Both the position numbers and the translations under genes were made by a program. Positions 18,867 through 50,653 of a stretch of DNA of 52,629 bases are shown piece after piece. Source of the stretch: a virus; IMG/VR virus record IMGVR_UViG_3300009494_000004, positions 1-52,629 of that record; one strand, 5' to 3'. Below the pieces are notes generated by a model that worked only from the letters and a program-made list of their open reading frames with translations, was not told where the DNA came from and ran no database searches. Numbering within the stretch: the stretch's first letter is position 1; each line of letters starts with the position of its first letter.

Positions 18867-18872
18867 AATCTT

Positions 18873-30307: not shown

Positions 30308-30320
30308 TAATCTCTCTCCG

Positions 30321-35288: not shown

Positions 35289-35510
35289 TCATTTGTTTTG
35301 CTGCCCGCATTGCGACATTATTTTTCCCGGCACTCTCTTCAAAGCGGCATTAGGTATAGGCGTCCACGCAAAGTTGTCCTTTGGCGTGTTCTTTTCGGCG
35401 GACAGCTCCGCTATGGAGGCCATAATTTCAGCGTATTCTGCGGCGGTCAACTTGAAGCCGAAACCAAGGCATTTTTGACATACGACTATTCTGTATCTTT
35501 TATTTGTCAA
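35289..35510 (-). CDS. Hypothetical small protein
   Basis: TTG start in a TTGA overlap with the upstream stop, with GGAGA 5 nt upstream. Confidence 0.45.
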   Translation of the reverse strand: MTNKRYRIVVCQKCLGFGFKLTAAEYAEIMASIAELSAEKNTPKDNFAWTPIPNAALKRVPGKIMSQCGQQNK

Positions 35511-35809
35511 TGTCGTCTCCGTTTAATACGCCGCAACCCCGGCCACAATTTTACAAACGTGTAGTAAAGCAAAAGCGCCAGCCAAACCGCGTTTGCCACA
35601 ACAACGGCTACGCCGCCAATAAATGACAACCACTGTCCGAGATGCGGATAGTAAAACAGGTTCCAGCCGCCCCACGCGGTAAAGAACGCTACCGCAATCC
35701 AACTGACACCCTTAACCTGCCTGTCGATAAGCAATCGACGCACGTTCAGCATAACAAACAACGCGCCGCACGCCTCAAGTATTCCATTGATCGTATCAGG
35801 CCACGTCAT
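35507..35809 (-). CDS. 3-TM membrane protein with a SemiSWEET/PQ-loop-like layout (tentative)
   Basis: 100 aa with three hydrophobic helices. The pattern LN-VRRLL..R.VKGVS, W..NLFYY and VANAV parallels the PQ-..VLKTRS...IS, LW..YG and SNAV of bacterial SemiSWEETs as I recall them. Confidence 0.35.
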   Translation of the reverse strand: MTWPDTINGILEACGALFVMLNVRRLLIDRQVKGVSWIAVAFFTAWGGWNLFYYPHLGQWLSFIGGVAVVVANAVWLALLLYYTFVKLWPGLRRIKRRRH

Positions 35810-36669
35810 TTCGTTTGACTCTCCATCCGTATTCCGAATCCGAGTAGAAGCGCGACAAGTGTATCCTTAATAGTATTGTCTGGTTCGGAAAGGAACCGCG
35901 TCCCAGCGACAGCTTGTACATAGTTCCTTATTACCGATTCAGTTTCATCAATGAGATCCGCCGCCGCGCGCCTGACGAGATGCTCGTCCGCGGCGGCGAT
36001 ACATAAATCCCTCACGTCAGCACGCGGAATGGTAGCCTTTCGCAGTTTTTGCGCGGATTTAACAATCTCCGGATCAAGCGTCAATTCGACAAATCTGTCA
36101 TAAAATAGGTCGGCGGCTTCGTTATAGTCAAGTTTACGGAACGTAAATTCGTCTATAGCACCGTCATACGACATCGCCATGTTGAACTTCAGGTCATCTG
36201 ATGGATTTGCAGACATCAAATGCTTATATTCCGTGACATTCATTATCTGATCTGCCTTTGTAACATAAGGACTTCTTTTAATTGGCAGACCGAATGCCTC
36301 GGCGACAACCGGCTCCCATATCCGTTCCAGCGCTTTATAGGAATTGAGCAACGATTTTAACGGACGCGATACGTCGCCAAGGTACGCTTCCGCCGCGTCG
36401 TGCATAAGCGCTTCAAACTGCAACATCCTCTTCTGCTTGTCTGTCATAGCGGCCAACTCCTCCGGGGGGACCAGAGAAAGCACCAGGTTCGCGCACTCGA
36501 CGGAATGCTCGGCAACACTGTAAAAACCGTTCGTATAGCCGGTAAACCGGCACTGTGCACCCAGCGACTGCGCAATATCCCTTATGTCGATGATACCAAC
36601 ATGCGGCCTTAAAAGGTTAACGGATATCCCACTTCCCGTCGCAATAATCGGTTCGGTTGTTTGTTTCAT
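35806..36669 (-). CDS. HD-domain phosphohydrolase, YfbR-type 5'-deoxynucleotidase / dNTPase-like
   Basis: FYSVAEHS...LMHDAAEAYLGDVSRPLK reproduces the H...HD...D metal-ligand pattern of YfbR-like enzymes. The ATG at 36669 has AAGGAGAG upstream. Confidence 0.65.
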   Translation of the reverse strand: MKQTTEPIIATGSGISVNLLRPHVGIIDIRDIAQSLGAQCRFTGYTNGFYSVAEHSVECANLVLSLVPPEELAAMTDKQKRMLQFEALMHDAAEAYLGDVSRPLKSLLNSYKALERIWEPVVAEAFGLPIKRSPYVTKADQIMNVTEYKHLMSANPSDDLKFNMAMSYDGAIDEFTFRKLDYNEAADLFYDRFVELTLDPEIVKSAQKLRKATIPRADVRDLCIAAADEHLVRRAAADLIDETESVIRNYVQAVAGTRFLSEPDNTIKDTLVALLLGFGIRMESQTK

Positions 36670-36686
36670 GTTTCTCTCCTTAATAT

Positions 36687-37220
36687 TTACGGTATCCAAC
36701 CATGTTTTTTGTCGTATTTTTCCGCACCGCCACGTTTAAACGGAGCGTCCGCAGGGCGGTTATCAAACTCCGGTTTGATGTCTACGAAGTCGAGGAGGAA
36801 AAGCAGGCAGCAAATAGCGTGCGCGAGGTGGTGCAGTCCCGATTCCGGATCGTATTCTTCGCCACCGTACCAGGCCCAAATATGACGTAACGCCGCGCCA
36901 ACGTATCGAGACCATTTAAGGCCACACCGGTACGAATTTGCCTCATACTTTTTTGCACCGTACGTGAGGACAGCGACGACCTGCCGTAGTGGGCCGGGCA
37001 TTAGTAACTCGAACATCAGCTTTCCGTCGTCGTACTTCGGTGCCTCAAATTTAGATGTTGCCGTTTCCCCCGCCACTGTTGACGACATAACCCGTTTTAG
37101 TGGCGGTTGCCGTAAACTATTTTTAGGTTTGTCAAACAATGCTATAAGTTGCGCAACCGGACCGAGTTTGATTTTTCCAGGTTTGATTTTTTCAATTTTC
37201 TTTTTCTTCAACGGATTCAA
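36687..37220 (-). CDS. MazG-like all-alpha NTP pyrophosphohydrolase (DUF5664 / dATP-dGTP diphosphohydrolase-type domain)
   Basis: KYDDGKLMFELL...VLTYGAKKYE.NSY......SRYVGAALRHIWAWYGGEEYDPESGLHHLAHAICCLLFLLDF matches that phage domain. The start is uncertain (TTG at 37220 or 37211). Confidence 0.6.
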   Translation of the reverse strand: MNPLKKKKIEKIKPGKIKLGPVAQLIALFDKPKNSLRQPPLKRVMSSTVAGETATSKFEAPKYDDGKLMFELLMPGPLRQVVAVLTYGAKKYEANSYRCGLKWSRYVGAALRHIWAWYGGEEYDPESGLHHLAHAICCLLFLLDFVDIKPEFDNRPADAPFKRGGAEKYDKKHGWIP

Positions 37221-39264
37221 CTCCTTTTTCTACGGACGTGCAGCTGCTCCACGAGTCGCCCGCCTCGATATCGACCGCAAAGGGGACAAACCCTTCGACA
37301 TCAATTTCCATAGCGTCGCGTATCATCGGCACAAGTCTGTCGCGATACTTTTTCGGTGTATGAAATAACAGTTCGTCGTGGACCGTTAATAGCATTTCGA
37401 CCGGGAACTTCGCAGGGACAATGATTCTATCATAACATCGTTTTATTGCGATCTTCATAATATCGGCGGCGGTGCCCTGCACTTCCTGGCTGATGGCGCG
37501 GCGTTCCCATTTCGCGCGCTCACCGGGAACGTCCGACCAGATTCCAGTCATCCCGCCGTCGTTTTCGTTGCCAGTCAACGGACGAATGCGACCAAAGTAA
37601 GTCTTCGCCCATCCACGCTGAAACGCAAGGCGCTTCCTACGACCAAGCCACGCAGTAAGTGCGGGCACAGTTTCGAACCATTTATCGATAAATTTCTGCG
37701 CTTTGCTTTCACTAATGTTGTATAGAAGAGCAAACGCATACGCGGTTTGTCCAAAAAGTGCTCCAAAATTTTGGCCTTTCGCTTTTTTATACTCTTCTTC
37801 AGTATAGTCCGCGCCGAACATTTTGATAGCGGTCGCAACGTGCGGCGATTCACCTTTCGCAAATGCATCAATCCATACTTTTTCTTTCGCAAAACTCGCC
37901 GGTATTCTAAGTTCAATCTGCGAATAATCTGCATCGACAAATGTCCAATCCTCATCCGATATAAACGTTGCACGGATATTAACTGGTACGTAGTCACCAG
38001 CGCACTTTGGAATGTTTTGTAAATTCGGTCCCGAACATGAAAATCTACCTGTTGCCGGACCGACTGACCAAAACGACGCGCGTAGTTTTCCGTCGTCATC
38101 CATTGCCTTTGGTATCTTCGATGTGAAACTGGATCGCAGCGTGCCAAGGCTTGATCCGTTCAATAACATTTCAACTACTGAATGCTTATTTTTCAATGAA
38201 TTGATAAACTTCTTTCCAGTAGCGCCGTAACCTGACGCCGTGTACGCTACCGGCTCCAATAACCGCCCGTCGACATCAATAAGTGCTGTTTTCTTATCGT
38301 GCGAAAGCGTTTTTTTGTTCCAGTTACCGAAAAGCAAAACGGATTTCTGCATCCAGCTTTTGAGGTTAATTTCCGTCGGTTTGCCGTACCGCTCCTCGGA
38401 CGCTATCTCATTCACCCGTCCGTTGATGACTTCGTACGCCTGCCCAAGCACCTTGTCCTGATCGGCAAGCAAGTCCAAGTTTATCCGTACGCCCGCCTGC
38501 TCCATATGGATGACTGGACGCACGACCTCATGCTCAAGGTTCCATGTTCCGCGCTGTTTTTCTTTCGTCTCAGCCAGTTCGGGAAGAAGCCATAATCTCC
38601 AGGTGAAATCAGCGTCCTGACAGCCGTAAATACGTTGCATCTTATTGTTAAGTTTGAGGAAGTCGCCGGGCATAAACTTTGACTTCGGGACACCGATTAT
38701 CTTGCTCATCGACAGCGTCGACCCGACGCCGGTGAGGTGCTTTTCGGCGAAACCTTTTAACCCTCCCGTCATTTTGTTATTCGGCCACGTAAGGTGGACG
38801 CCGATGAACACATCCTGGAAATCGTGGACTTCAACTCCGTGGTTCTCCAAAATGGGGATATCGTATTTCGCGTTTGCCATGACGAGCGTACTTTTCTTTG
38901 CCTTTACGGCGAGCGCCCTTAAACATGCCTTTGAGGGCATTGGAACCCAATAGGCCTGTGCGGGTTCGCAGCATACCGAAAAGCCGTACAGCTCCGTCTT
39001 GCCGGGCCGTATATCGAGACCGCTTGTTTCCGTATCTACCGCAAACTCGTTACCAAATCCGTTAAGTACCTTCCGTAATTCGGTAGCCGTTTTAATTTCA
39101 ACGTACCGGCAACCTTTATCCATTGCTTCGGCGTATTGAACCTGAAGCCCGGCTTCTTTCTCCAGCTTCAGTTGCGTCTTGGTTGGCGGCTTGATCTTTT
39201 TTTCTTTTTTCCTTTTAATTTCAGGCACTGTACGCCTCCAATGCGGCTTCCGCAGCCTCGACAT
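37192..39264 (-). CDS. Family-A DNA polymerase with a 3'-5' exonuclease domain
   Basis: Exo I FAVDTETSGL, motif A DADYSQIELRI, motif B KGQNFGALFG and motif C TVHDELLFH. Confidence 0.85.
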   Translation of the reverse strand: MSRLRKPHWRRTVPEIKRKKEKKIKPPTKTQLKLEKEAGLQVQYAEAMDKGCRYVEIKTATELRKVLNGFGNEFAVDTETSGLDIRPGKTELYGFSVCCEPAQAYWVPMPSKACLRALAVKAKKSTLVMANAKYDIPILENHGVEVHDFQDVFIGVHLTWPNNKMTGGLKGFAEKHLTGVGSTLSMSKIIGVPKSKFMPGDFLKLNNKMQRIYGCQDADFTWRLWLLPELAETKEKQRGTWNLEHEVVRPVIHMEQAGVRINLDLLADQDKVLGQAYEVINGRVNEIASEERYGKPTEINLKSWMQKSVLLFGNWNKKTLSHDKKTALIDVDGRLLEPVAYTASGYGATGKKFINSLKNKHSVVEMLLNGSSLGTLRSSFTSKIPKAMDDDGKLRASFWSVGPATGRFSCSGPNLQNIPKCAGDYVPVNIRATFISDEDWTFVDADYSQIELRIPASFAKEKVWIDAFAKGESPHVATAIKMFGADYTEEEYKKAKGQNFGALFGQTAYAFALLYNISESKAQKFIDKWFETVPALTAWLGRRKRLAFQRGWAKTYFGRIRPLTGNENDGGMTGIWSDVPGERAKWERRAISQEVQGTAADIMKIAIKRCYDRIIVPAKFPVEMLLTVHDELLFHTPKKYRDRLVPMIRDAMEIDVEGFVPFAVDIEAGDSWSSCTSVEKGVESVEEKEN

Positions 39265-39988
39265 CGCGCTCGTATAGATGCAGATTAAGCGCGATATTCG
39301 TGAACCGTCCGCAGGGTCGGCTAAGCTCGTCGGCCATCGCCATCTGGAGTCCGTGCATCGTGAACACGTCGTTGCGAAGACCTGTATTTACATCCTGCGA
39401 GCGGAATACAACTGTCGCACATAAACCGCCATTCCTTATCGTAAACTGAAGGCAGATACAGCACGGAAAATCTTTCGTCGGAACCGCCTTGTGCTTGACC
39501 TGATTTACGTTCAACACGACCTGCCTGCTGTCCGAGTCTTTTCGTAGCTTGTCAACCGCCCATATCCATTGGTTTATATCTGTAACGTAGTAGCCCGTGT
39601 CGCCCTCGTGCTTCGACGGCACCGTCATATCGAATCGCTGACTGAATAAATACTGTCCGTACGCACTATTGACACGTATACCGTCGTCGGAAAATTGCTC
39701 CCAAAGCTTTGTAAAACTTTTTCTCGTCACCGGATGTACAAGGTCGGCAATTCTGTCAGATCCGCTCAAGTACCAAGCAAGTTCGGCCTCAGCGTACGGC
39801 ACCCTCGTGTGAAACGGCTTTAACGTTGACACAAAATGCTTGTCCTGATAACCGTTTATATAATCAAGCGTAAGAATGTAATTGTTTACCTCACGCACGG
39901 CCAAACTACGCGGCGCGGACTTCTGCCCAGCCAATGTCGCCCTAATGGCATCATAATACTCTTTATTGAAATCTGTAAATAGCGACAT
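39221..39988 (-). CDS. Thymidylate-synthase-fold enzyme with the dCMP-hydroxymethylase-type active-site signature (deoxycytidylate C5-modifying enzyme)
   Basis: It aligns with E. coli ThyA across ELAWYLSG, NSAYGQ, DSDSRQVV, FPCCICLQF and FRSQDVNTGLRND. The residue 31 positions after the nucleophilic Cys is Asp (RND, as in T4 gp42 D179), not the Asn of dUMP-specific enzymes. The ATG at 39988 has AGGAGAG upstream. Confidence 0.65.
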   Translation of the reverse strand: MSLFTDFNKEYYDAIRATLAGQKSAPRSLAVREVNNYILTLDYINGYQDKHFVSTLKPFHTRVPYAEAELAWYLSGSDRIADLVHPVTRKSFTKLWEQFSDDGIRVNSAYGQYLFSQRFDMTVPSKHEGDTGYYVTDINQWIWAVDKLRKDSDSRQVVLNVNQVKHKAVPTKDFPCCICLQFTIRNGGLCATVVFRSQDVNTGLRNDVFTMHGLQMAMADELSRPCGRFTNIALNLHLYERDVEAAEAALEAYSA

Positions 39989-40454
39989 CGACTCTCTCCT
40001 GTATCTTTTCAGTTTCCCAGTTAAGCAAACCCCCGTTCCATTTCTGTTCGAATCTGCAATCCTCAAACTTATTTAACGGTACGGAACTACGCCCGGCGTT
40101 TTTTGCGACTTTCGCAGCGGCCCGCCACCTGTCAACGGGAACAGCATACGCGCACTTGTTGCGCGGACCTTTGTAATGCACGATAATGAGAAATCCCACA
40201 CCGCCCGCGCGCTCAATATCTTCCAGTTCGTCAAGCTGACTTTCACGAACTCCACGTAACGGCTGAGAAATACCGTGTTTTACAATTTTGAATTCAAACC
40301 CGACCGCTATTCCGTCCCAACAGGCAATAACGTCAACAGCGCGTGTCCCCGTATCAAGTCCATACCGGGGATCTGCGATCTTATGACACCAAAGCTCCGA
40401 CTTGACACGTCGCCAGCTTTTCGTTATTTGGTTTGTTATCTCGGTTTCTCTCAC
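39963..40454 (-). CDS. PD-(D/E)xK nuclease, Holliday-junction-resolvase-like
   Basis: VDVIACWDG..VGFEFK gives a D...E.K catalytic motif. GTG start with GGAGA upstream. Confidence 0.5.
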   Translation of the reverse strand: MRETEITNQITKSWRRVKSELWCHKIADPRYGLDTGTRAVDVIACWDGIAVGFEFKIVKHGISQPLRGVRESQLDELEDIERAGGVGFLIIVHYKGPRNKCAYAVPVDRWRAAAKVAKNAGRSSVPLNKFEDCRFEQKWNGGLLNWETEKIQERVDVAIYRFQ

Positions 40455-40466
40455 GGTTTTCTCCGG

Positions 40467-40814
40467 CTACAAATTAAACGATTCCGACGCCCTGATAAGT
40501 GCTATTATATTCGACACGTAACATAGACTTATTCCGTATTCGCCTGACTTTGACGGCTGGCAGATGCCAAGTTCTATCGCAATAGCGCGCTGCAACGTTT
40601 GTAATCGTGCGACCTCAACGACAAGTTCATTTTTGTTTTTTGCGTGAAGTGAAATTTCAGTCGATACCCTAAATTCGCAGAATATGGGCTGGGGTGGCGT
40701 TTTCGGCCCTTTGTGGCTTTTCGGTCCGTCGATTCTCTTTGCAACTTTTTTTGCGGACTTGCGACTTTCGCCGGGATCATACCAGTCTTGTTCGTTTTTT
40801 GATTCTGGTTTCAA
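40467..40814 (-). CDS. Hypothetical protein
   Basis: TTG start in a TTGA overlap, with GAGGG upstream. The N-terminal DWYDP motif is shared with the product of 43262..43921. Confidence 0.45.
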   Translation of the reverse strand: MKPESKNEQDWYDPGESRKSAKKVAKRIDGPKSHKGPKTPPQPIFCEFRVSTEISLHAKNKNELVVEVARLQTLQRAIAIELGICQPSKSGEYGISLCYVSNIIALIRASESFNL

Positions 40815-41107
40815 ATCTTAACCCTCATTACTTTGACTTTTTTCTGGACGTACGACAGCGCCTCTACGGTATTCCGTATTGTGTAGAAACCCGTACGCCA
40901 CGCGATTACGATAGGCTTACCGTACCGGGTGCGGTCCGACGCTGCCCATGCGTCAAAATGGTCTTTGAATTTTTTCGTCGTTTCGTCTTCAGTGGGGGCA
41001 TTGACCATAACCGCATTCAACTGCGCAACCATCATCCTCTTAAACGAGGTAAGGTCCATAAAATCCCCAAGCGAAAATCTGTATTTTGTTTTTTGTTTCT
41101 TACTCAT
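40811..41107 (-). CDS. Hypothetical protein
   Basis: The ATG at 41107 overlaps the upstream stop (ATGAGTAA). The track start is 41137. Confidence 0.45.
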   Translation of the reverse strand: MSKKQKTKYRFSLGDFMDLTSFKRMMVAQLNAVMVNAPTEDETTKKFKDHFDAWAASDRTRYGKPIVIAWRTGFYTIRNTVEALSYVQKKVKVMRVKI

Positions 41108-42098
41108 TGTTTTGTGTCCACATTCCGTAGCCTGCATGGTTCGGACTGATTATCCTCGGCAACGTGCCGGATTCCTGTATGGCCCGCATAACCTGCCAAT
41201 ACTCTATGACGCGCTGCTCCAGCGTATGGTAGCGTAGCACATTCTGCTGTCCGCACGCCGCCATCTCCTCGCGAATATCATCATGCTCTAAGTAGAAATC
41301 TATTTTACGCACCAGGTCGTCAAACGTGTCATCGTGCGTAACACAATGCGTGCCCTTCTCCCACATATAGTCGAAATTCTGCACCTTGTGGTTGATAAAC
41401 GCCACGCCGGAACCCATCGCGTTATACGTACGATTACTGACGACAAACGGACCGGGATTCAGAAATAGGCTGCGCTGTATATTGAACGCCACTTTGCTTT
41501 GAGCATAGGCCTCGGCCATATTCCATTCACGAATCTCGCCGGGTCGCCCTATTTTGTCGAGGACGAATTTGCATTTGTACCGACGGCTAAGTTCATTAAG
41601 CCATTTTCTTCTAATCTTATCGGTCGATCCTATGAAGCACAAGTCGTAGATTTCCTTCGACAAATCAAGCCGCGTCGGCAGCGCGCCGTCTTTCATGCAG
41701 GAACGGTGATCGAAGTATTGAGGCATCCACAGCACGGTCGGCGCGAGGTCGCAGTACCGGCGAGCCGTCTCAAGTATGGAGAACACGAGCACGTCGGCCC
41801 GGTTCGCAAGCTGACGACGCCACATCCTGTCGCGCGTCCGCTCCGTCATGTCGGGATACCAGAACAGAAGCTTCGCACCGCTTTTTCGTATTTGGCGGTA
41901 GTAGCGCCGGAAGTCCGGACGTAGCGCAAAGCAGAACACCCAATCGGGCTTATACGACTCAAGCACGGGTAGCATCTCCTCTGGATGCGCGCGCGACCCG
42001 GTCAACATAACGTCGAATCCCTGACGTTTCGCTTCCTTGTACAAATACGGACCGGCGAACCGCTTCTGAAATCCGCACGCCCAAACGAGAACCTTCAT
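41100..42098 (-). CDS. Glycosyltransferase, CgeB/GT1-like (GT-B fold)
   Basis: [10 protein letters not shown]..., LCFIGS..., VAFNIQR....[16 protein letters not shown] resemble the DUF3880/Glyco_trans_1_2 (CgeB) family. ATGA-coupled start at 42098. Confidence 0.55.
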
Positions 42099-42343
42099 AC
42101 GGATACTCCATGACATTTTTTGTACTTAAGACCGGAATCGCACGGACACGAATCGTTCCTGCCAATCTTATAATAGGGACGCCGATAGGTTCCACGTACG
42201 GATGAATCCCAGAACGTCATACACTTACGCCCGTATTTGTCCCTCTTGTCCGGTTTCCGCTTTTTGGGTTGCGCGGTTACGCTTTCACGCTTACGCAGAA
42301 AACTAAATAGCCACGCAATTATTTTCGCAAAAATCTTCATCAT
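42095..42343 (-). CDS. Small protein with an N-terminal hydrophobic helix and a C-terminal SEC-C zinc motif
   Basis: [17 protein letters not shown] is a SEC-C motif. ATGATGA coupling to the upstream gene. Confidence 0.55.
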
Positions 42344-43179
42344 AGACTGTCCTTTAGCATGCGTTTCGCCTCGTTGACTATGACCGACGAATCCGGCAAC
42401 CACATTTTCTTTTGTCTCCAGTGCGCATCGCCTGGACTTTGCATTGTCTTGACGCGCGTATTAAACGGATTCCAATGACTTTGAACCCGTAGACTGTGGT
42501 CGCGGCACGTTTGCCAACACAACTGTGGAAGCCCGCACAGTGTCGCCAGGTGTGCTGGTCCCGACTGCGGACTAATGATGAGTTTCGACGACGCCATTAA
42601 ATCCGTTAATGCGGTAAGGTTAATATCTCGGCAATCCGTGCCCCCTACGTGCAAAGACGACTCAGATTTTCCAATACATACGACGCTGTATCCGGCGCGC
42701 ATAAGCGATTCTGAAACTATCTTTGCATGCTTTTTCGGCCAATTCCTAAATCCGGTGCTGCATTTGTCGGTATCGCGAACATGGAGCAAAACATCCGGTA
42801 CAAGGCAACCGTCGACCTTTTTGCCCAACCGAATAAGCGACTGCCGCGTAGACCAATACTGTGAATCCCACCACCGCTGCGGATACGCATCCGGTTTTAT
42901 CCATTCCGCGTTTGGCGCAAAATCCTCAATGTAAAAGCGAAAATTCGTGATTTTCTGTCTATCGACAGATCGGTCGTAACACATATCAGTTTGGTTGTCG
43001 CCTTCGCCGAAATGTAATATGTCGTCGGCAAAGTCCGTATATAGTGCATCGTGTCCAGCCCGACACGCGACGACGACTCGGTCGTACTTCGGCGCAATTT
43101 TCCTGAGAAACCCCTGCCAACAAAACAGTTCCCAACCGAGCTCGCCTATGAATGGTCCGGCAAAAAGTGTCTTCATCAT
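42340..43179 (-). CDS. Glycosyltransferase, GT9 (heptosyltransferase)-like GT-B fold
   Basis: N-terminal [12 protein letters not shown] and C-terminal [19 protein letters not shown] resemble GT9 enzymes. AAGGAAA Shine-Dalgarno. Confidence 0.5.
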
Positions 43180-43194
43180 TTTCCTTATTTAGAG

Positions 43195-43219
43195 CAGGCC
43201 GGGTTTTATGCCCGGCCTG
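43195..43219 (-). other. 9-bp GC-rich stem-loop between genes (weak terminator candidate; no U-tract)
   Basis: caggccggg-ttttatg-cccggcctg. Confidence 0.3.
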
Positions 43220-43261
43220 ATTCAGCGGCCTACCGATCCGTGTAACAGCTACGCCGATTCG

Positions 43262-43921
43262 TCAGTCACTTTTCTTGCCGGACGTGGCATCCTTCAGCTC
43301 TTTTGTAGTCATCACCTTGCCGACTTTGTCCTTAAATGACTCGCGGAACTTGTAGCTCTCCCAGTCGCTTTCGACTTTTTCCGAAAGATCGTCGTCCAAA
43401 GCGAAGGCTTCCGGCGCGACAGAAATGTCGTCGAAGAACGTGAATTCGCCCTTTTTAACGCCAGTCAACAGCAGGTCGTGCTCGAAGATTTTCTCTCCCC
43501 ACTGCTTGAACTGCTTAAACAGCCGCTCGTATATGGGTTTCGACATCGCCCAAAGCACGAATTTGTATTCGATGTCCTCAATTTCCATTTTCTTGCCAAG
43601 CGTGCCGTCGCTCTTTACATCATACACAGCAACCGGCACAATATAGCGTGGATCGGGCGGCTTGCCGGTAAGCTCCTGGTCAAATCCCGGTTTCACTTCG
43701 CGATAACGTCCGTCGACAATTTCGTACTCCGTCAGAGTTTGCACTGAACCAACTTTGTTCTGGTCGATATAGGAGCAGTATTCGCGATGTGGCGGACACA
43801 TAAGCATAACGCGCGTCACCTTGCCCGGCTCGGCCTTCAGCCAATCGAGGCTATTCTGTCCCGCCTCTGCCGGATCGTACCAATCGGCGTTGACCTTTTT
43901 CTTCTTGCTTTTTTTCGACAT
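43262..43921 (-). CDS. Hypothetical protein (possible ssDNA-binding/annealing role from position only)
   Basis: 219-aa ORF with a Lys-rich N-terminus, a DWYDP motif and an AGGA Shine-Dalgarno. Confidence 0.45.
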   Translation of the reverse strand: MSKKSKKKKVNADWYDPAEAGQNSLDWLKAEPGKVTRVMLMCPPHREYCSYIDQNKVGSVQTLTEYEIVDGRYREVKPGFDQELTGKPPDPRYIVPVAVYDVKSDGTLGKKMEIEDIEYKFVLWAMSKPIYERLFKQFKQWGEKIFEHDLLLTGVKKGEFTFFDDISVAPEAFALDDDLSEKVESDWESYKFRESFKDKVGKVMTTKELKDATSGKKSD

Positions 43922-43976
43922 TTCACCATCCTTTTTTCCGGTTATAGTTTTTTCTTCAGTTCATGTAAATTCGCGA

Positions 43977-44039
43977 AAACGCCGCGACAACGGGGCTTCT
44001 GTGTCTTTCCAGTGTCCGCCCCGGAATAGCGCGGCGTTT
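43977..44039 (-). other. Nested inverted repeat (10-bp outer stem aaacgccgcg/cgcggcgttt, 6-bp inner stem cggggc/gccccg); candidate terminator or attenuator
   Basis: Read directly. On the minus-strand RNA the outer stem is followed by UUUUCGCGAAUUU. Confidence 0.35.
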
Positions 44040-44047
44040 GCAAACGG

Positions 44048-44269
44048 TTAGAAGTCATCGTCATTGTTCAACCTGAACAGCGTCCACAGTTCGTCAGCCG
44101 GGACCGAGAACGGCCAGTCGGGGTTAGTGTCCTGTACGACGTACACAGTACCGTTCCGCAGGATATCGTCGTGCCGATACCCCCTGACGACTGTATACGG
44201 GTCGCCGTACCTTTTACAGACCAGCTTCGTCCCCTTTGGCAGGTCGCGGTCAAGCGTAAACGTGCTCAC
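44048..44269 (-). CDS. Small protein ending in an acidic tail plus Phe (…NNDDDF)
   Basis: The GTG at 44269 overlaps the upstream TGA (GTGA). The longer track ORF (to 44410) would overlap the upstream gene out of frame. Confidence 0.45.
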   Translation of the reverse strand: MSTFTLDRDLPKGTKLVCKRYGDPYTVVRGYRHDDILRNGTVYVVQDTNPDWPFSVPADELWTLFRLNNDDDF

Positions 44270-44505
44270 AGCAACCCCCCCGCAGCGAGCTTGCGTCGCA
44301 TAGCAAGAACCTCCAGTTCGCGGTCGGCGAACGTTTTTGTTTGCGCAGCCGCCTCGGATTGTGTCACGGCGACCTCGCTTCGCTTGCCGCGCGCAATAGC
44401 GCGTTGACATGTCTTGCAGTACGATTGCCGCCCGTCAAACTTAGCCCGGTCCGCCCAAAATTCGCAAAGCGGCTTTACTTTCAGACAATATGGGCATTTC
44501 TTCAT
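44266..44505 (-). CDS. Stand-alone CxxC...CxxC zinc-ribbon protein
   Basis: CPYCLKVKPLCEF......DGRQSYCKTC. Paralogous to residues ~185-225 of the product of 44814..45704. ATGA-coupled. Confidence 0.5.
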   Translation of the reverse strand: MKKCPYCLKVKPLCEFWADRAKFDGRQSYCKTCQRAIARGKRSEVAVTQSEAAAQTKTFADRELEVLAMRRKLAAGGLL

Positions 44506-44795
44506 CGGACCTCCACAAGGTCGCGCTTCGAGATTTTCGTATACAGCGACTTAATCTCCAGGACTTCGTGTTCGGTCGCGACCGCGTACGCTATCGTCTT
44601 CCAGTCCGCGACCGAAACCGGCGTCCGCTTGACGTGGATAACGTCGAAGCCGACGCGAACTTCGCAGTCCGCGCCGATCTCCTCGATAACACGGTCAATC
44701 TTCGGACGGAGCCTGGCCTCAATATCCCTCAGCTCGGCCTTCAGTGCGGCCTTCAGCTTCAGCAATCTAACGTCTTCCCGATTGAGTATTGACAC
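44502..44795 (-). CDS. Hypothetical protein
   Basis: GTG start with AAGGA 8 nt upstream. 97 aa. Confidence 0.45.
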   Translation of the reverse strand: MSILNREDVRLLKLKAALKAELRDIEARLRPKIDRVIEEIGADCEVRVGFDVIHVKRTPVSVADWKTIAYAVATEHEVLEIKSLYTKISKRDLVEVR

Positions 44796-44813
44796 GGCTT
44801 TTTCCTTACCCCC

Positions 44814-45704
44814 CTATTGCGTAGTTTTCTTAGTGGCCTTTTTGACGGCTTTTTTCGCGGTCTTTTTCACGGCTTTAATCTTTTTGATCTCCGAAGCCTT
44901 CGGTGCCAGAGCGGCGGGGTCGTTATTGTTGCGCAACTTCGCGGTTTTTTTTGGTTTGGCCGATCTGGTCCGCTTTGTCTCAACAGCCTTCGATATGGCC
45001 TTAGCAGACTTTTCGGGTATATTCGGCCCGGCTTCACGTCGCTTCTTCTGATAGGCACACTCACACACCTTGCAGTGGCTAAGCTTACCATCCGGTGACT
45101 TCGTTTTTTTGTGAAAATCAGTCAGCGGTAAAATTTTTTTGCAACGCGCGCACCGCTTCTCGCCTTTCGGCGCGTGCTTCACTGTCGACGTTCGTTTGGC
45201 GATCTGCTTAGCCGCCTTTTCGCTGAGCGTCTTCAGGTGTTCCGTTGGCTTCGAACTTGTAACAGTCTTCCTCGACGTGGCTTTCTTCGACTTTGCAACT
45301 CCAGTCGAGTCATCGAATTTGTCGTCCGTTTTTGTCAATTTCATGTCCTTCTCCTTATTGAAGGTTTCGGTTATTGGTTCTCTTTTGTCAGCGAGCAGAT
45401 CGCCAAATTTTTTCAGCATCTTATTGAAATCGCGTCTTACGATTTTACGTCCCTTATCGGCAAGATATCCAGCGATACCTTCGGCCGCTTCGCGCCTTGT
45501 GTGGTAAATCGGCGACATGCCGCACCCGGTATGAAGATCCGACACGTTCCACGCCTCGTTGTCGTACTGCATCGAACCGTCAACAATAGAAAGTAGCTTT
45601 CGGTGCACAAACGGCACGAGGAAACCGAATCCCTTCATCGGCGGCAGATGGTAGCCTTCTACCTCGAAAATCCCCGCCCTTATTCGCAGCTTCGCCGTTG
45701 ACAT
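44814..45704 (-). CDS. DNA-binding-like protein: N-terminal globular domain, zinc ribbon and a histone-H1-like Lys/Ala-rich tail
   Basis: CARCKKILPLTDF.......DGKLSHCKVC followed by KPKKTAKL...KKIKAVKKTAKKAVKKATKKTTQ. Confidence 0.5.
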   Translation of the reverse strand: MSTAKLRIRAGIFEVEGYHLPPMKGFGFLVPFVHRKLLSIVDGSMQYDNEAWNVSDLHTGCGMSPIYHTRREAAEGIAGYLADKGRKIVRRDFNKMLKKFGDLLADKREPITETFNKEKDMKLTKTDDKFDDSTGVAKSKKATSRKTVTSSKPTEHLKTLSEKAAKQIAKRTSTVKHAPKGEKRCARCKKILPLTDFHKKTKSPDGKLSHCKVCECAYQKKRREAGPNIPEKSAKAISKAVETKRTRSAKPKKTAKLRNNNDPAALAPKASEIKKIKAVKKTAKKAVKKATKKTTQ

Positions 45705-45711
45705 TTTTACC

Positions 45712-46485
45712 TTATTTCTTCTCCATATTTTTCAATTTAGCCTTTGCCTCATCAACCTCAAACTTGGATTCTAAGATAGTGACTTTTTCGGCCTTTATGT
45801 CCCGTATCGCGGCGATCTGGCCATCCTTACACTGTTTACAGATACCATGCGACTCGCCGGTTTTCCGGGTCTTCTCGAACTCGTCGTCCTTAAGGGCGAT
45901 AAGGATGAACTCGGACCCGTCGTACCCGCGTACGACATACGACCGGCACCACGCGCAGAGATGAACGGCGTCCAGCTTACAGCATGACGCTATAAAAGTC
46001 TCGCGCCGAGTCTTTTCGACGCCGACGGTTTCGCAGCTAAGAGCTATTTCGTAAAGGTCAACACCAAATTTTTTGCAGACCGCAAACGCCTGACCCATCA
46101 TCCAGTCGTATTCATCAGCAATGATGTCGTCTATGGCCTGTTCATCGTCGTCACTATTGATTTTCGTATAGTCGGCGAACAACATATCGGGGTTAAAGCA
46201 AACGCCAATCCATTCTCGGCAATGAACCAAAAACTGTTTGACATCCTTAAGATTTTCAATTTTCACAGGCAGCTTTGGAATATCGCGAACCACGTCAGTC
46301 TCAACATTATGCTCAGCAAGTTCGTACTCAAGCTCCTCGGCCTTAATAGCCGCCCATTGAACATCAGTTACGCAATATAATGTAGCGGTTTTGCCATCAC
46401 GATATACAACCTCAACAGTATAAAGGTCATTAGCTTTCCAACTTACGATTTGAGCAACCTTTTTACGATCTGTCTGGTTTTCCAT
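45712..46485 (-). CDS. Hypothetical protein
   Basis: The ATG at 46485 is preceded by AAGGAGA. The track start (GTG at 46509) coincides with the predicted +1 of promoter-like motif P3. Confidence 0.5.
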   Translation of the reverse strand: MENQTDRKKVAQIVSWKANDLYTVEVVYRDGKTATLYCVTDVQWAAIKAEELEYELAEHNVETDVVRDIPKLPVKIENLKDVKQFLVHCREWIGVCFNPDMLFADYTKINSDDDEQAIDDIIADEYDWMMGQAFAVCKKFGVDLYEIALSCETVGVEKTRRETFIASCCKLDAVHLCAWCRSYVVRGYDGSEFILIALKDDEFEKTRKTGESHGICKQCKDGQIAAIRDIKAEKVTILESKFEVDEAKAKLKNMEKK

Positions 46486-46516
46486 TACAATCTCCTTGTT
46501 AAGGGTCACTTATATA

Positions 46517-46536
46517 GTAAGCGAATCCCGTGCCAA
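46517..46536 (-). promoter_or_regulatory. P3: sigma-54-type -24/-12 promoter-like motif TTGGCAC-N5-TCGCTTAC (minus strand)
   Basis: The reverse complement reads ttggcacgggattcgcttactatata. It shares 16 identical nt (attcgcttactatata) with P1 at 1125..1150. It lies in the only sizeable intergenic gap inside the early operon. Confidence 0.5.
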
Positions 46537-46654
46537 GATCCAGAAAAAACCGTAACACGTTGAAACACAATACAATAGCGTAATCGACGAAAGGTCAACC
46601 GCAGAAAAAATGCAAAAAAGTGTGGGTTTTTAGCCATATTATGTAGATCGCTAC

Positions 46655-47926
46655 CTATACTTCCTCACGTAGCCATTCAAGACGAGAAAAATCTTGTATA
46701 ATCATGTTATCGTTGTCATAAATAACGCGAGATATTTTCGCATCAAAGGGACACGCAGCCCGTGTAAGCGCCGCCGCGACGGCCCGGATAAGATCCTCTG
46801 ACGTGTTTACTGGAACGTTCTGCGTAACGTGCGCGGGTTTCGCACCTTTGTCGTAACTGAGTTTGAAATCGTCCGGCAGACCCATAAAATCCATACACTC
46901 CCGCACGGACATAAATCTCGACTTGGTCGGATGCTTCCACCACCTCATCCCGTGGATCATCAGGGTTGGCGTGAGATCGCGCACAAGCACCGGAGTCTCC
47001 CGGCGAAAACCAAGACCCTGGTCCGTCTTTGCCTTGACCTTAATTACGATGTCGTTCCACTGTTTCGCGTTCGCCCGGTACTCGTCACCGCCCCTGACAC
47101 GCGGACGGACCGACTCGGCGGCAAGCCACGCAATCAGCTCCGAAAGTAAACCCTGCTTGACGGCTAACGAAATAACGTAACTTTTGGCGTTTGGCTCTCC
47201 CCCAATACTAACATTTTTCGAATCTATCCAGCCCTTGCGACGCGCATAACGAATCAAGGAGTCATTGGCGTAATTACTATTAAGAAACTCCTCGTCGTGC
47301 GGTCGCGTACCGAATACTTTACCGCATCTTTCGAGAAACTCCGAAACTGCCAACGGCCTTCCCCTTGTCTCCAGGGCGATAATCCTGGGCGTACCCTTCC
47401 ACAAAAGGCCGTACGTACGCCTTCGCTTCTGCGGTATCCCGTGGTTCGCCGTATTGACCTTTACCATAGTGAGTGAGTAGCCCAGGCTTTTTGCAAGCTC
47501 GGCAACACGCTTCGCCATCGGACGCCCCTTGTCCGTCGCCAGCAGGGGCGCGTTTTCAAATACGTGTACACCCGGACTGAAAGCCGTTATGGCGTAGCGA
47601 ATTGTCCGCGTAATCCAGTCGTTCGTTGGACAGTCGCAGCCTTTCGTTGGTGAATTATTCCCCATCGACAGACCGCCACACGGCGGAACGGAATGCGTGA
47701 TATCTATACGAGAGAATTTATCCGTGTTCGTTACGAAATACGGAACCTTTGGCCAGTAGCTCCTGAGACTTGACGAGTGCGCGCCGCCGAATACATTTCC
47801 GGCCCCGTCAAGCATATCAACAATGACCTCCGGCAGTCGGCCGATTGCGCGCGCCGCGCCAATGGCGAGTCCACCCGTGAGCGGCATGATGGCTGCATGC
47901 GTTAAATTTGTTTTCCGTCTCAGCAT
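46655..47926 (-). CDS. Divergent DNA cytosine-C5 methyltransferase-fold protein
   Basis: Motif IV-like PPCGGLS (canonical PCQ), motif VI FENAPLL (ENV), motif VIII QKRRRTYGL, and C-terminal RECMDFMGLPDDF and QNVPV (canonical GNAVP). Confidence 0.6.
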   Translation of the reverse strand: MLRRKTNLTHAAIMPLTGGLAIGAARAIGRLPEVIVDMLDGAGNVFGGAHSSSLRSYWPKVPYFVTNTDKFSRIDITHSVPPCGGLSMGNNSPTKGCDCPTNDWITRTIRYAITAFSPGVHVFENAPLLATDKGRPMAKRVAELAKSLGYSLTMVKVNTANHGIPQKRRRTYGLLWKGTPRIIALETRGRPLAVSEFLERCGKVFGTRPHDEEFLNSNYANDSLIRYARRKGWIDSKNVSIGGEPNAKSYVISLAVKQGLLSELIAWLAAESVRPRVRGGDEYRANAKQWNDIVIKVKAKTDQGLGFRRETPVLVRDLTPTLMIHGMRWWKHPTKSRFMSVRECMDFMGLPDDFKLSYDKGAKPAHVTQNVPVNTSEDLIRAVAAALTRAACPFDAKISRVIYDNDNMIIQDFSRLEWLREEV

Positions 47927-48993
47927 AATTTTCTCCTTCGTAAAATTGTTCTGACTATTTTTGGTATTTGAACGGACATATCGTTTTCCGCAAAGTAATT
48001 CGACATTGCTTTTTGGTATGCGATCACAGTAGAGACCCTCGAAACCGTTCTCCGTATCCTATCGATATCGCCTAAGCCGGTTATTAATAGGGACTTGAAC
48101 TCGTCCGGAACAAGATATTCGAGTCGGTTATCAATCAGAGGAAGCACGCCGGATGACACAGTTTGAACGAGCTTGTTGCAAGTAGCTCGGCAATTAACCA
48201 CCTTCTTATTCATTGTGCAAAGCTGCCCCCAGCGGTTCGGCAACATATCCAGCAGAGTTTTTTGCGGTACTTGTCCGTGAAAATGGACGTCCGGTAACCC
48301 GGCCTTTTGCTTATTCGTCCATCTGCCGTACACGTCTATATCCCCGAACCGTGACAGGAACTCGGTCTTCTCCCCTTTCCTGGAGTTCCCAAAATACACC
48401 GCACGCTTACCCGGTAACGGTCTCCTTATCGGAACGGAGGCGCCACTCCAGTAAACCGCGTCAATGTCAGCGTAGAAAAAATTGTCCACAGGAAGGGGGA
48501 TATTGCGGCATCCGTTCCATTCGGTCGCGAGTCTGTCGGCGTCTCTCCCGAAGTGGAGAACAAACACCCTGTTCGGGTCCAGCCTTTCTATCCCCCACTT
48601 TCTGTAGACGTCCGTTCGATTCGGGCGGTATAGAAACAGGTCACGCAGCGAAGCTGTGAAATCCGTGAAGTAGTAAATAACCGGAAGATTGGATTTCTGG
48701 ATTGTCAGATATTTTACAAGTTCTCTACGGGTAAGCGAATTACTTTCCCAAACGAGATTCGGGTTGTCGTAAAATTTCATATTCCATTCGAAATCGAACG
48801 GTATAGACTGAAACAGCAGTATTGCGTCCGCCTCGTCGATATCGTCGACGAAGTCACATCCGCTTTTGTCGCGTATCCCGCGCCAGGTCAACCATACGCC
48901 GGTTCCGCACCGTTCGAATCTTTTTTTGGTCGCCGTCGAGCTATCGACGGCGCGGTTGAAATTCATCGGGTACAACTTCGGACGTCTTCTCAC
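47920..48993 (-). CDS. T4 DNA beta-glucosyltransferase-like protein (tentative)
   Basis: VIYYFTDF (T4 bGT IYYLFTD, holding the catalytic Asp), AVYFGNSRKGEKTEFLSRF (T4 VIYGGSFRSGQRESKMVEFL) and FHGQVPQKT (T4 FTGKIPMNM) occur in the same order and at similar spacing in a protein of similar length (357 vs 351 aa). The T4 sequence is recalled from memory. Confidence 0.45.
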   Translation of the reverse strand: MRRRPKLYPMNFNRAVDSSTATKKRFERCGTGVWLTWRGIRDKSGCDFVDDIDEADAILLFQSIPFDFEWNMKFYDNPNLVWESNSLTRRELVKYLTIQKSNLPVIYYFTDFTASLRDLFLYRPNRTDVYRKWGIERLDPNRVFVLHFGRDADRLATEWNGCRNIPLPVDNFFYADIDAVYWSGASVPIRRPLPGKRAVYFGNSRKGEKTEFLSRFGDIDVYGRWTNKQKAGLPDVHFHGQVPQKTLLDMLPNRWGQLCTMNKKVVNCRATCNKLVQTVSSGVLPLIDNRLEYLVPDEFKSLLITGLGDIDRIRRTVSRVSTVIAYQKAMSNYFAENDMSVQIPKIVRTILRRRKLC

Positions 48994-49000
48994 TTCACGC

Positions 49001-50305
49001 CTATCTTCCCATAAGCTTATTCAAATAACGGTCCACGTTTACCTGAAGCCGCGCAAGCGGGCCGCGCGTGGCGTTCCAAACGAACGCCATCGTCCCGCGC
49101 TTCTGCCAATTAAAGGACTTCAGCCGATGCCATTCGTTCGGCGCAGTTATTCCCGGCAGATACTCGACAGACACGCCTTGCTCTTCCATTGTGGACGGCT
49201 TGCTGGAGCCTTTACGGTGCTGGTCACCGAGGTGCCATTCGCGGTATCCGTTCTTCGTCCGCGCCCACGCCTCCGGCATTTCGTTCGCCATAAGCGCCGC
49301 GAGCCGTATTGGCGCGACGCTGTGCCCGTGCTCGTACCCTATGAGATTGCATCCGTATTCATGAAATTTGTACGGCGACGACGTTGCGTCCACCGTCACC
49401 TCCGGGTCGTTCTTGTAGTACGCCTGAAGCACACGGCCAAGCATGAACGACGTCGTCCGGTCGTGGTTTCCAGGAATGAAATAAAGACGAACCGGCGCAA
49501 TCTCGCGCACTCTGTCGACAATCTGTATAGCGAGCGCTTCGCCGGTCACGAACGTGTTGTAGTATGCGTCCGCCTCCGGCTGCCCGGTGTGCTGCGTAGT
49601 TTCCTGCCATATCGTGTCGGAGTGGAAGAAATCGTTTCCCATTGGCATCACAATTTCTTCAAATGGCCCGAACGAAGCGGCGAGGCTGATTATTTCCTCC
49701 AACGACTCCATGACCATCTGCGCACAAAACTCCGGCGACCATTCAGCGTCGGACGCGGGCTTGAACGTTCGCATCCCATAGTGCGGATCCATAAGCGCGA
49801 TCTCGAGCGCGTTACGTTCATTCTTCTGCCCTAACTTCAGCCGTCTGATTTTCGGTTTCGGCGACTTACTCTCCAGTTGCATAAGCAGCTTACCGACGGC
49901 GTCCTCGACGACCTCCGGCACGGCGCGCTCAAACACTACTTTAAGTCGAACATTCTGAACTGTAAACGGCTTGTCCTTTTTTTCCGGTTCGCGAATCTTC
50001 ATCGTCACGTCGTAACTGGAATGCTCAAAACTTTTAACGCGCCACACCGCCATATCGACATTCAGTTCACATATAATATCGTCAATAGTTGCGAACCTGC
50101 ATCCGTCGGCTTCGACAACCCACTGACCACTTTTCTTTTGCTGCTTAAAGACGTTTTTCTGAATTTCGGTTTTGTCGTCCAAACGGTCAAACCTCCTCTT
50201 ATAAACATTTTCAGATATACCGAGGCTCCGCGACGCGGCGGCTTTATTACCAAATTTTACGTACGCTTCACGTATTTGTTTGTCGGTAGCTTTTAGTTTT
50301 GCCAT
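49001..50305 (-). CDS. Calcineurin-like metallophosphoesterase with an N-terminal HTH-like region
   Basis: LMDPHYG (DxH), MGNDFFHSD, IPGNHDR (GNHD/E) and GYEHGH. N-terminal AASRSLGISENVYKRRFDRL. Confidence 0.6.
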   Translation of the reverse strand: MAKLKATDKQIREAYVKFGNKAAASRSLGISENVYKRRFDRLDDKTEIQKNVFKQQKKSGQWVVEADGCRFATIDDIICELNVDMAVWRVKSFEHSSYDVTMKIREPEKKDKPFTVQNVRLKVVFERAVPEVVEDAVGKLLMQLESKSPKPKIRRLKLGQKNERNALEIALMDPHYGMRTFKPASDAEWSPEFCAQMVMESLEEIISLAASFGPFEEIVMPMGNDFFHSDTIWQETTQHTGQPEADAYYNTFVTGEALAIQIVDRVREIAPVRLYFIPGNHDRTTSFMLGRVLQAYYKNDPEVTVDATSSPYKFHEYGCNLIGYEHGHSVAPIRLAALMANEMPEAWARTKNGYREWHLGDQHRKGSSKPSTMEEQGVSVEYLPGITAPNEWHRLKSFNWQKRGTMAFVWNATRGPLARLQVNVDRYLNKLMGR

Positions 50306-50652
50306 TAGCGTTTCCTAATTCCAAATGTTTTGTTGAATTGTTTTTTCATCCTAATAAGTTTTGATGAACTCTGCGCGGATATGAACCGTCCGCGAAGAAA
50401 TACATTTAACTTCCGTGCGATAGTAACAGGATTCAAAGTTTCATATTTCCAAATAACGCAAACGCGCCAACCCGTGTTTTCTAATTTTTCAACTGTATTA
50501 TTACGTATACGCAAAAAACAGCTATACATAAATATAACTGCTTTCCATTTTCGCAATACGATATTTGGTTTACCCGGTAGTCCACAGCCACCAAGACGGA
50601 AACGAAAACCCATGCGATGAAGAAGTGAACGGACAATAACTTCTGACTTCAT
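50305..50652 (-). CDS. Degenerate Vsr/DUF559-like protein (catalytic and zinc residues missing)
   Basis: E.IVRSLLHRMGFRFRL....LPGKPNIVL...KAVIF parallels Vsr E..L.SLL...G..FR....LPG.PDFV.....VIF, but the catalytic Asp is Asn and the GCFWH.H.C segment is replaced or shortened. The gene is AT-rich (~36% GC). Confidence 0.4.
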   Translation of the reverse strand: MKSEVIVRSLLHRMGFRFRLGGCGLPGKPNIVLRKWKAVIFMYSCFLRIRNNTVEKLENTGWRVCVIWKYETLNPVTIARKLNVFLRGRFISAQSSSKLIRMKKQFNKTFGIRKR

Positions 50653-50653
50653 A

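Follow-up and report, generated by a model that had tools for sequence, protein, structure and literature searches.

A candidate minimal T4-like route to sugar-modified 5-hydroxymethylcytosine in a non-T4 phage replication module

The locus described here raises the question of whether a phage other than T4 and its kin builds glycosylated 5-hydroxymethylcytosine (hmC) into its DNA. It lies in IMG/VR record IMGVR_UViG_3300009494_000004, positions 1–52,629, and this whole stretch of 52,629 nucleotides is called the window. The original prediction had described a toolkit for glycosylated hmC in the replication operon. It included a thymidylate-synthase homologue with the signature of a deoxycytidine monophosphate (dCMP) hydroxymethylase, a protein resembling the T4 DNA beta-glucosyltransferase (BGT), further glycosyltransferases and methyltransferases, and enzymes of the nucleotide pool. 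The core of this proposal is supported, namely the hydroxymethylase, by its signature residues, and the BGT-family protein, by profile comparisons. The other glycosyltransferases, the methyltransferases and the MazZ-type and HD-domain enzymes are not supported as dedicated parts of it. In the reading favoured here, the genes for a minimal, T4-like synthesis of sugar-modified hmC are probably contained in a non-T4 replication module of the phage. Every step of the mechanism proposed below is based on sequence signatures, homology and gene neighbourhood. The coordinates of the features are collected in Table 1.

The closest solved relative of the thymidylate-synthase homologue (39221–39988) is MilA, a CMP 5-hydroxymethylase (E = 3.7e-15). 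The start codon found in homologues of the gene is the one assigned originally. The protein was aligned with 14 homologues, T4 gp42 and Escherichia coli ThyA. The catalytic cysteine (Cys146 of ThyA) is kept, in an FPC motif that aligns with APC in ThyA and FMC in T4. Leu143 of ThyA is replaced by aspartate, the local sequences being TKDFPC in the window, MSDFMC in T4 gp42 and MALAPC in ThyA. In the segment RSQDVNTGLRND, Asp169 is kept and Asn177 is replaced by aspartate (GLRND, compared with GFRND in T4 gp42 and GLPFN in ThyA). The combination Asp/Asp/Asp at the equivalents of ThyA 143, 169 and 177 is also that of T4 gp42 and MilA. Aspartate occupies the equivalents of 143 and 177 in every phage homologue aligned, and E. 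coli ThyA alone differs. MilA, an enzyme of the mildiomycin pathway (PDB 5b6d), shares these two aspartates but has Lys133 and Ala176 where the window enzyme has an arginine and an RS pair, respectively. We take arginine and serine at these positions to fit a deoxy substrate, as in deoxynucleotide-specific enzymes. The window enzyme also differs from MilA in being phage-encoded, beside a DNA polymerase.

The positions that distinguish the enzyme from ThyA have been tied to function by experiment: N177D to the use of dCMP, L143D or L143E to a hydroxymethyl instead of a methyl product, and D169N to the flavin-dependent synthesis of 5-hydroxy-dCMP (PMC13326640, 2026). By these rules, the Asp/Asp/Asp signature fits a 5-hydroxymethyl-dCMP synthase, in agreement with the dCMP-hydroxymethylase signature first reported for this gene. 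Other assignments were rejected: an ordinary thymidylate synthase because of N177D, a dCMP methylase because of L143D, and a 5-hydroxy-dCMP synthase of the RB69 gp48 type because Asp169 is retained (RSQD) and is not an asparagine. The systems of RB69, DLP3 and RL38JI, which combine 5-hydroxy-dCMP synthases with DNA arabinosyl- or hexosyl-transferases (PMC13326640), likewise use a dCMP-acting thymidylate-synthase homologue followed by DNA glycosyltransferases, well beyond T4. The window differs from them by the absence of the diagnostic D169N, and it contains neither NDP-arabinose genes nor a cognate deoxynucleoside monophosphate (dNMP) kinase.

The synthase gene is located between those of RecU and PolA, an arrangement found only in relatives of the thymidylate-synthase type (TS-type). 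An IMG/VR related-locus search with the hydroxymethylase returned no relatives. A synthase of the same clade, 47% identical to that of the window, is encoded on the contig L004. Its neighbours on either side are genes for a dNMP-kinase-like protein and for a gp56-like dCTPase (E = 4e-11 with T4 gp56), and a canonical T4-type BGT (E = 6e-38 with T4 BGT) is encoded about 6 kb away. This neighbourhood lends support to the function assigned to the synthase clade as a whole.

L004 is an unrelated contig, and its positions 3138–11390 hold a near-complete T4-like set around the hydroxymethylase. Besides the kinase-like and dCTPase genes, the set includes the canonical BGT (PF09198), an 825-residue CofD/NTP_transf_3 protein and a family-A polymerase that bears a UDG-like domain.

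The second component of the core, the 357-residue protein encoded at 47920–48993, is far more diverged. By sequence, this protein has no direct match in Pfam, PHROG or the PDB, and an IMG/VR related-locus search with its family returned no relatives. Only five close homologues were found among 5.8 billion proteins. More distant relatives, some of which weakly match PF09198, were brought in by HMMER profile search. The resulting profile of 15 family members matches T4 BGT (1BGT) over residues 1–288 with E = 8.6e-18. A bridging profile, built from an intermediate clade with the window protein left out, matches both the window protein (E = 9e-45) and T4 BGT (E = 1.5e-17), and gave no match to T4 alpha-glucosyltransferase or to GT1 and GT2, the two further glycosyltransferases of the replication region. 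The narrow profile of the window protein is marginal against T4 BGT (E = 0.03–0.06); its hhalign comparison with the single T4 BGT sequence is insignificant, yet in the same register. The catalytic base of T4 BGT, Asp100, which is an alanine in PDB 1nzd, aligns with Asp111 of the window protein, and this aspartate is invariant in the 15 family members. Arg205, also invariant, aligns with Arg191 of T4, one of the residues (with Arg195, Arg269 and Glu272) that we take from the structural literature to bind UDP. The resemblance to T4 BGT noticed originally is real though remote, and these comparisons support the assignment of the protein as a genuine but distant member of the T4 BGT family.

A predicted role in glucosylating the hmC of duplex DNA, with UDP-glucose as donor, is supported for this protein by its genomic association with hmC-type synthases. 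Its relatives are found beside hydroxymethylase-type genes in three further contigs, L004, L005 and L090; in the latter two, the neighbour is a thymidylate-synthase gene of the D/D type. In L091 the neighbour is a dNMP kinase gene. Every contig in which the BGT-like gene was seen is either TS-type or too short to be typed. In L090 (389–3667), the remote BGT-family gene is found among trimeric dUTPase/DCD-like, UDG-like and D/D-signature thymidylate-synthase genes, and this cluster is another non-T4 candidate for hmC synthesis.

In the proposed route, the thymidylate-synthase homologue would convert dCMP and methylene-tetrahydrofolate to 5-hydroxymethyl-dCMP, as its signature residues indicate. 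The product would be phosphorylated, presumably by host kinases, and then incorporated by the phage family-A polymerase. The BGT-family enzyme would move one hexose from a UDP-sugar to hmC in the DNA, a step suggested by homology, by the catalytic aspartate and by the gene neighbourhood. The MazZ-like and HD-domain enzymes probably edit the pool of deoxynucleoside triphosphates (dNTP) and dNMP, and possibly supply dCMP or remove dCTP. Substitution of cytosine may be incomplete, leaving room for a C5-methyltransferase and for selection against restriction sites.

The T-even pathway to glucosyl-hmC consists of the gp56 dCTPase, the gp42 dCMP hydroxymethylase, the gp1 dNMP kinase, and the alpha- and beta-glucosyltransferases. 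The likeness lies in the thymidylate-synthase-fold enzyme with the gp42 signature residues and in the BGT homologue with the catalytic aspartate. In contrast to T4, no homologue of gp56, gp1 or the alpha-glucosyltransferase was found by six-frame search of the window, where a MazZ-type pyrophosphatase and an HD hydrolase, with presumed roles in the nucleotide pool, stand in their place. The polymerase belongs to family A instead of family B, the divergence of the BGT-like protein keeps Pfam from detecting it directly, and a C5-methyltransferase and a strong avoidance of restriction sites are present, unlike in T4. If the proposed route is correct, the T4-type strategy of hmC plus sugar is present in a small non-T4 lineage with a very diverged BGT subfamily and different pool enzymes, and the set of enzymes for hmC tagging and sequencing would be widened.

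Several observations weigh against this route. Neither a dNMP kinase of the gp1 type, nor a gp56-type dCTPase, nor a dCMP-supplying deaminase is found among the family matches of the window. The dNMP kinases of L004 and L091 have no match in its six-frame translation, and a six-frame search carried to E = 10 returned no dNMP kinase, gp56, alpha-glucosyltransferase, 5-HMUDK, PurZ or trimeric dUTPase. Searches of the window by phmmer and BLASTP with T4 gp56 gave no gp56-type dCTPase/dUTPase either. In the BGT-like protein, the equivalents of T4 Arg195, Arg269 and Glu272 are Lys209, Lys274 and Gln277, which are conservative changes. Its AlphaFold model, obtained from an alignment of five sequences, is poor, with a predicted local distance difference test (pLDDT) score of 45.6. 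The 21 kb examined of the TS-type relative L003 contain no BGT-like gene. To these points are added a C5-methyltransferase with intact catalytic motifs, which would have no substrate in fully hmC-substituted DNA, and a strong avoidance of C-containing restriction-type palindromes across the window.

Candidates for a kinase from a Walker-A scan, one of them inside the GroES-like gene, were rejected as chance matches. In L003, positions 16732–19353 encode a C5-methyltransferase, a sigma-70 region-2 protein and a protein with PF18723, the helical domain of 5-hydroxymethyldeoxyuridine DNA kinase. To judge by this gene set, the hydroxymethyl group in L003 may undergo another kind of hypermodification downstream.

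The methyltransferase was aligned with M.HaeIII, in a sequence consistent with the M.HaeIII fragments from another search. Motifs IV (PPC), VI (ENA), VIII (QKRRR) and X (QNVPV) are kept. Motif I, which binds S-adenosylmethionine (SAM), is a variant, MPLTGGL as opposed to LFSGAGGL, with one glycine lost, and the match to PF00145 begins at position 55 of the model; the first description of the protein as a divergent member of the C5-methyltransferase fold was apt. Its gene overlaps the end of the BGT-like gene and is translationally coupled to it. In the close relative L001, a C5-methyltransferase gene (11068–11772) also adjoins the BGT-like gene, whereas one small open reading frame (ORF) separates the two in L002. 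The L001 protein is only 32% identical to that of the window, compared with about 80% for the flanking genes, which suggests the replacement of an allele, or of a specificity, at a fixed slot. The presence of a C5-methyltransferase sits poorly with cytosine being replaced completely.

The avoidance of palindromes is pronounced. CTAG (54 expected), GCCGGC (24 expected), CCCGGG (10 expected), CTGCAG (8 expected) and CCCGAG/CTCGGG (14 expected) were all observed 0 times, GGCGCC was observed once for 17.5 expected, and CCGCGG 3 times for 22 expected. Summed over 59 hexamer palindromes, the occurrences amount to 0.68 of expectation, compared with 1.01 for non-palindromes; over 36 kb of T4, the palindrome measure comes to 0.97. 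Avoidance is equally strong throughout the genome. L001 shows it as well, and sister contigs that encode PurZ (presented below) show part of it. It may be a legacy of the host or lineage, or the modification may be partial or not fully protective. As neither a dNMP kinase nor gp56 was found and C-containing sites are so strongly avoided, complete replacement of cytosine is doubtful. Extreme avoidance alongside a modification pathway raises the question of how complete or protective the modification is.

The genome with zero CTAG also contains a Vsr-like endonuclease gene (50305–50718). In E. coli, very-short-patch repair is linked to CTAG depletion.

The same evidence bears on the first alternative, in which cytosine is not replaced wholesale. 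The DNA would be mostly canonical or sparsely modified, with the avoidance of sites and the C5-methyltransferase as its protection. The BGT-like protein would act on a minor fraction of hmC or on some other acceptor. This we hold to be possible but rather unlikely. It would agree with the undetected phage kinase and dCTPase, with the palindrome avoidance common to L001, and with the different methyltransferase in the same slot of L001, as expected of an active anti-restriction gene. A synthase homologue expressed without its kinase gave a mere trace of modified base (PMC13326640). However, the conservation of the synthase and of the BGT-like gene, and their joint occurrence in lineages far apart, argue for functional coupling and selection, and the avoidance, being shared in part with the PurZ-type sisters, may be inherited with the lineage or imposed by the host.

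The minimal hmC route, which remains the preferred reading, is carried by a replication backbone that is found with another modification system as well. The original listing of a MazG/DUF5664-type pyrophosphohydrolase and of a YfbR-type HD hydrolase next to a family-A polymerase was correct on all counts, although the scores of the HD protein with Pfam YfbR-like and HD_3 are just under the cut-offs. The MazZ-type enzyme is a candidate for supplying dNMP and for keeping a canonical dNTP out. It has no similarity to T4 gp56, of which this PF18909 enzyme may nevertheless be an analogue. In the relatives (compared at L003 13204–13999 and L005 13197–14019), the C-terminal 85 residues or so of the HD protein correspond to a small ORF of their own, the gene being either fused in the window or split in the relatives.

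The gene order p219, GT2, GT1, RecU, PolA, MazZ recurs in the sister contigs L007/L013, L010 and L012. In these sisters RecU abuts PolA, no thymidylate-synthase homologue is present, and a gene for PurZ, which is adenylosuccinate-synthetase-like, follows MazZ; they are 2-aminoadenine-type phages. The PurZ of L007 has no match in the six-frame translation of the window. The polymerase of the window is 47–52% identical to those of TS-type relatives, compared with 31–34% for the PurZ type. In the replication stretch from RecU to the primase, the hydroxymethylase is the sole gene that differs between TS-type and PurZ-type sisters. The window has the same backbone as the Z-genome phages with PurZ, MazZ and DatZ (a PF18909 MazZ-type enzyme, an HD enzyme, a family-A polymerase, RecU, primase-helicase, GT1 and GT2), but it lacks PurZ, and the hydroxymethylase occupies the place between RecU and PolA. 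The MazZ-like and HD enzymes are backbone genes and not specific companions of the hydroxymethylase, and the lineage appears to alternate between a 2-aminoadenine (PurZ) cassette and an hmC cassette. A notable by-product is this single replication backbone bearing either a PurZ or an hmC-synthase cassette, a swap that constitutes a natural system for the study of how polymerase and pool enzymes co-adapt to a change of base.

A more elaborate scheme can be drawn from the same comparison. On the shared backbone of family-A polymerase, MazZ-type enzyme, HD enzyme, RecU and primase-helicase, the interchangeable cassettes would be PurZ on the one hand, changing A to 2-aminoadenine, and the hmC synthase with the BGT-family enzyme on the other, changing C to glycosyl-hmC. 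The MazZ-type and HD enzymes would have been re-specified to dCTP and dCMP, replacing gp56 and a dedicated kinase, and the methyltransferase with the altered SAM motif would be a second route, working on the DNA itself, to those sites that had remained unmodified. This scheme is speculative and, taken as a whole, unlikely.

The original prediction had gone further and envisaged a multi-sugar or methyl-sugar derivative of hmC, with the base as the successive substrate of all three GT-B enzymes, of the family-2 glycosyltransferase and of both late methyltransferases. The enzymes themselves are as described. GT1 belongs to the Glyco_trans_1_2 family, GT2 resembles GT9 enzymes, and the late genes comprise a family-2 glycosyltransferase and two methyltransferases, recognised by Pfam. 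The assignment of GT2, whose Pfam score is marginal, was strengthened by its AlphaFold model (pLDDT 95.8), for which the top Foldseek matches are the GT9 enzymes 3tov, TibC, WaaC and WaaF, with a probability of 1.0 and a TM score of about 0.6. TibC is a protein heptosyltransferase. PDB sequence searches with GT1, GT2 and the MazZ-like protein were uninformative.

The place of GT1 and GT2 in the co-directional module of the hydroxymethylase, an arrangement kept in the TS-type contigs L003 and L005, would favour the multi-sugar scheme, and poly-glycosylated cytosines are known in other phages (PMC13326640). Against it, GT1, GT2 and the family-2 glycosyltransferase, as well as the MazZ-like and HD enzymes, are kept in the PurZ-bearing sisters without a thymidylate-synthase homologue. 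GT1 is 55–61% identical across TS-type and PurZ-type contigs alike, as high between types as within one. The family-2 enzyme, kept in L001, L003, L007, L010 and L012 and with a homologue in L008 by profile search, accompanies GT1 and GT2 and not the hydroxymethylase. A survey of 188 relatives of GT2 in IMG/VR, for which 80 loci were fetched and their neighbours within 10 kb considered, found a thymidylate-synthase homologue in none of the 80. A GT1-like partner was present in about 46 of these loci and an FkbM methyltransferase in 21. NAD-dependent epimerase/dehydratases (36 loci) and DegT aminotransferases (33 loci) were recurrent, together with a PfkB sugar kinase, UDP-glucose dehydrogenase and a radical-SAM enzyme. 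The GT9-like loci carry NDP-sugar and glycan genes instead of a synthase.

Since GT1 and GT2 are kept in the PurZ sisters and the surveyed loci have no thymidylate-synthase homologue nearby, the two enzymes are set apart from the cytosine pathway. Together with the family-2 and FkbM proteins they most likely form a separate glycan-building module, whose predicted acceptor would not be DNA and could be a protein or a polysaccharide. The multi-sugar scheme finds no support in this evidence and is improbable. It follows that glycosyltransferases inside a replication module are not safely assumed to act on DNA.

The pair of a GT9-like and a Glyco_trans_1_2 enzyme (L010–L089, IMG/VR) is a widespread phage module, often with an FkbM methyltransferase and NDP-sugar genes. 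No description of this GT9-like/Glyco_trans_1_2/FkbM module was found in the literature.

A pathway at the DNA level was also considered, in which the C5-methyltransferase-fold and BGT-like proteins would modify and then glycosylate cytosine at C5 in a site-specific manner, independently of the synthase. The adjacency of the two genes in the window, L001 and L002 and the intact catalytic motifs, with their variant motif I, would be compatible with it. The arrangement recalls the phage TET/JBP pathways, in which a C5-methyltransferase, a dioxygenase and a glycosyltransferase cooperate. Unlike these, the window has a nucleotide-level hydroxymethylase and no detected dioxygenase: no TET/JBP 2OG/Fe(II) 5-methylpyrimidine dioxygenase, or other oxidase, was found among the family matches of the ORFs searched, and a TET-type pathway was rejected for lack of it. 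Moreover, L004, L005 and L090 have BGT-type genes with a thymidylate-synthase gene and without an adjacent C5-methyltransferase, and the divergence of the L001 methyltransferase suggests ordinary specificity swapping. Such a pathway is very improbable. A 265-residue protein downstream of the methyltransferase, picked by eye as a dioxygenase candidate, was rejected; it has cysteine-rich, zinc-binding-like motifs and no family match.

Finally, that the enzyme is an ordinary dUMP-specific thymidylate synthase in a region unrelated to DNA modification is scarcely credible: the source databases do call its homologues "thymidylate synthase", but aspartate stands at the Asn177 and Leu143 positions throughout the aligned phage sequences, the window enzyme included, and the closest solved relative is a cytidylate hydroxymethylase.

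As to the genome in which the hmC route is proposed, transcription of the 52.6-kb window proceeds almost wholly from the minus strand, and the replication-region genes listed in Table 1 are all on that strand, separated by short gaps or overlaps, which bears out the co-directional, coupled operon described at first. The structural and lysis genes encode a gpA-type terminase, a portal protein, an HK97-type protease-capsid fusion, a tail tube protein and a holin/endolysin, and the fusion accords with the HK97 fold that had been suggested. Genes at the two ends of the window are joined in L001, which makes it probable that the window represents a circularly permuted genome, nearly complete; its ends were not found to overlap. 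Against isolated phages, neither megablast of the 15-kb region nor tblastn of GT1 gave a match, and no description of the lineage was found in the literature.

Table 1. Positions of the features in the window and of the PurZ genes in sister contigs
Feature	Position	Strand	Match or comment
Family-2 (GT-A) glycosyltransferase, beside lysis genes	2646–3338	minus	PF00535, E = 2.9e-12
FkbM-family methyltransferase, between terminase and portal genes	24906–25688	minus	PF05050, E = 5.5e-15
Methyltransf_23 protein	27538–28131		
GroES-like co-chaperonin	29774–30370	minus	phrog_3188, E = 6e-13
Small membrane protein	35507–35809	minus	Three hydrophobic segments, read directly from sequence
HD-domain YfbR-like (deoxy)nucleotide phosphohydrolase	35806–36699	minus	phrog_318, E = 4e-55; PDB 2gz4, E = 1.6e-9
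MazZ-type dNTP pyrophosphohydrolase	36687–37220	minus	PF18909 (formerly DUF5664), E = 5e-33; phrog_801
Family-A DNA polymerase with 3'-5' exonuclease	37192–39264	minus	PF00476, E = 1.8e-73; PF01612
Predicted thymidylate-synthase-fold 5-hydroxymethyl-dCMP synthase (dCMP hydroxymethylase type), 255 residues	39221–39988	minus	PF00303 (Thymidylat_synt), E = 7e-20
RecU-type Holliday junction resolvase	39963–40454	minus	PF03838, E = 3e-9
GT1, GT-B glycosyltransferase (Glyco_trans_1_2)	41100–42116	minus	PF13524, E = 7e-21
GT2, GT9-like GT-B glycosyltransferase	42340–43179	minus	PF01075, 22.5 bits for a cut-off of 22 (marginal)
Divergent C5 DNA cytosine methyltransferase-fold protein	46655–47926	minus	PF00145, E = 4.6e-17
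Remote T4 BGT-family (GT63-like) protein, 357 residues; proposed hmC-DNA hexosyltransferase	47920–48993	minus	
Metallophosphoesterase-type DNA repair exonuclease	49001–50305	minus	phrog_704, E = 4e-55
Vsr-like mismatch endonuclease	50305–50718	minus	PF03852, E = 6e-11
HNH/NUMOD4/AP2-domain homing-endonuclease-like protein	51319–51882	minus	Homologue absent from L001
PurZ of L007/L013	18144–19205		
PurZ of L010	17244–18314		
PurZ of L012	16393–17505		

The genes originally listed were all recovered at their positions by family and profile matches, the metallophosphoesterase as a DNA repair exonuclease, with the exception of the label SemiSWEET given to the small membrane protein, which has no Pfam or PHROG match. 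Around the GroES-like gene, mechanical ORF picking wrongly preferred ORFs of the plus strand.

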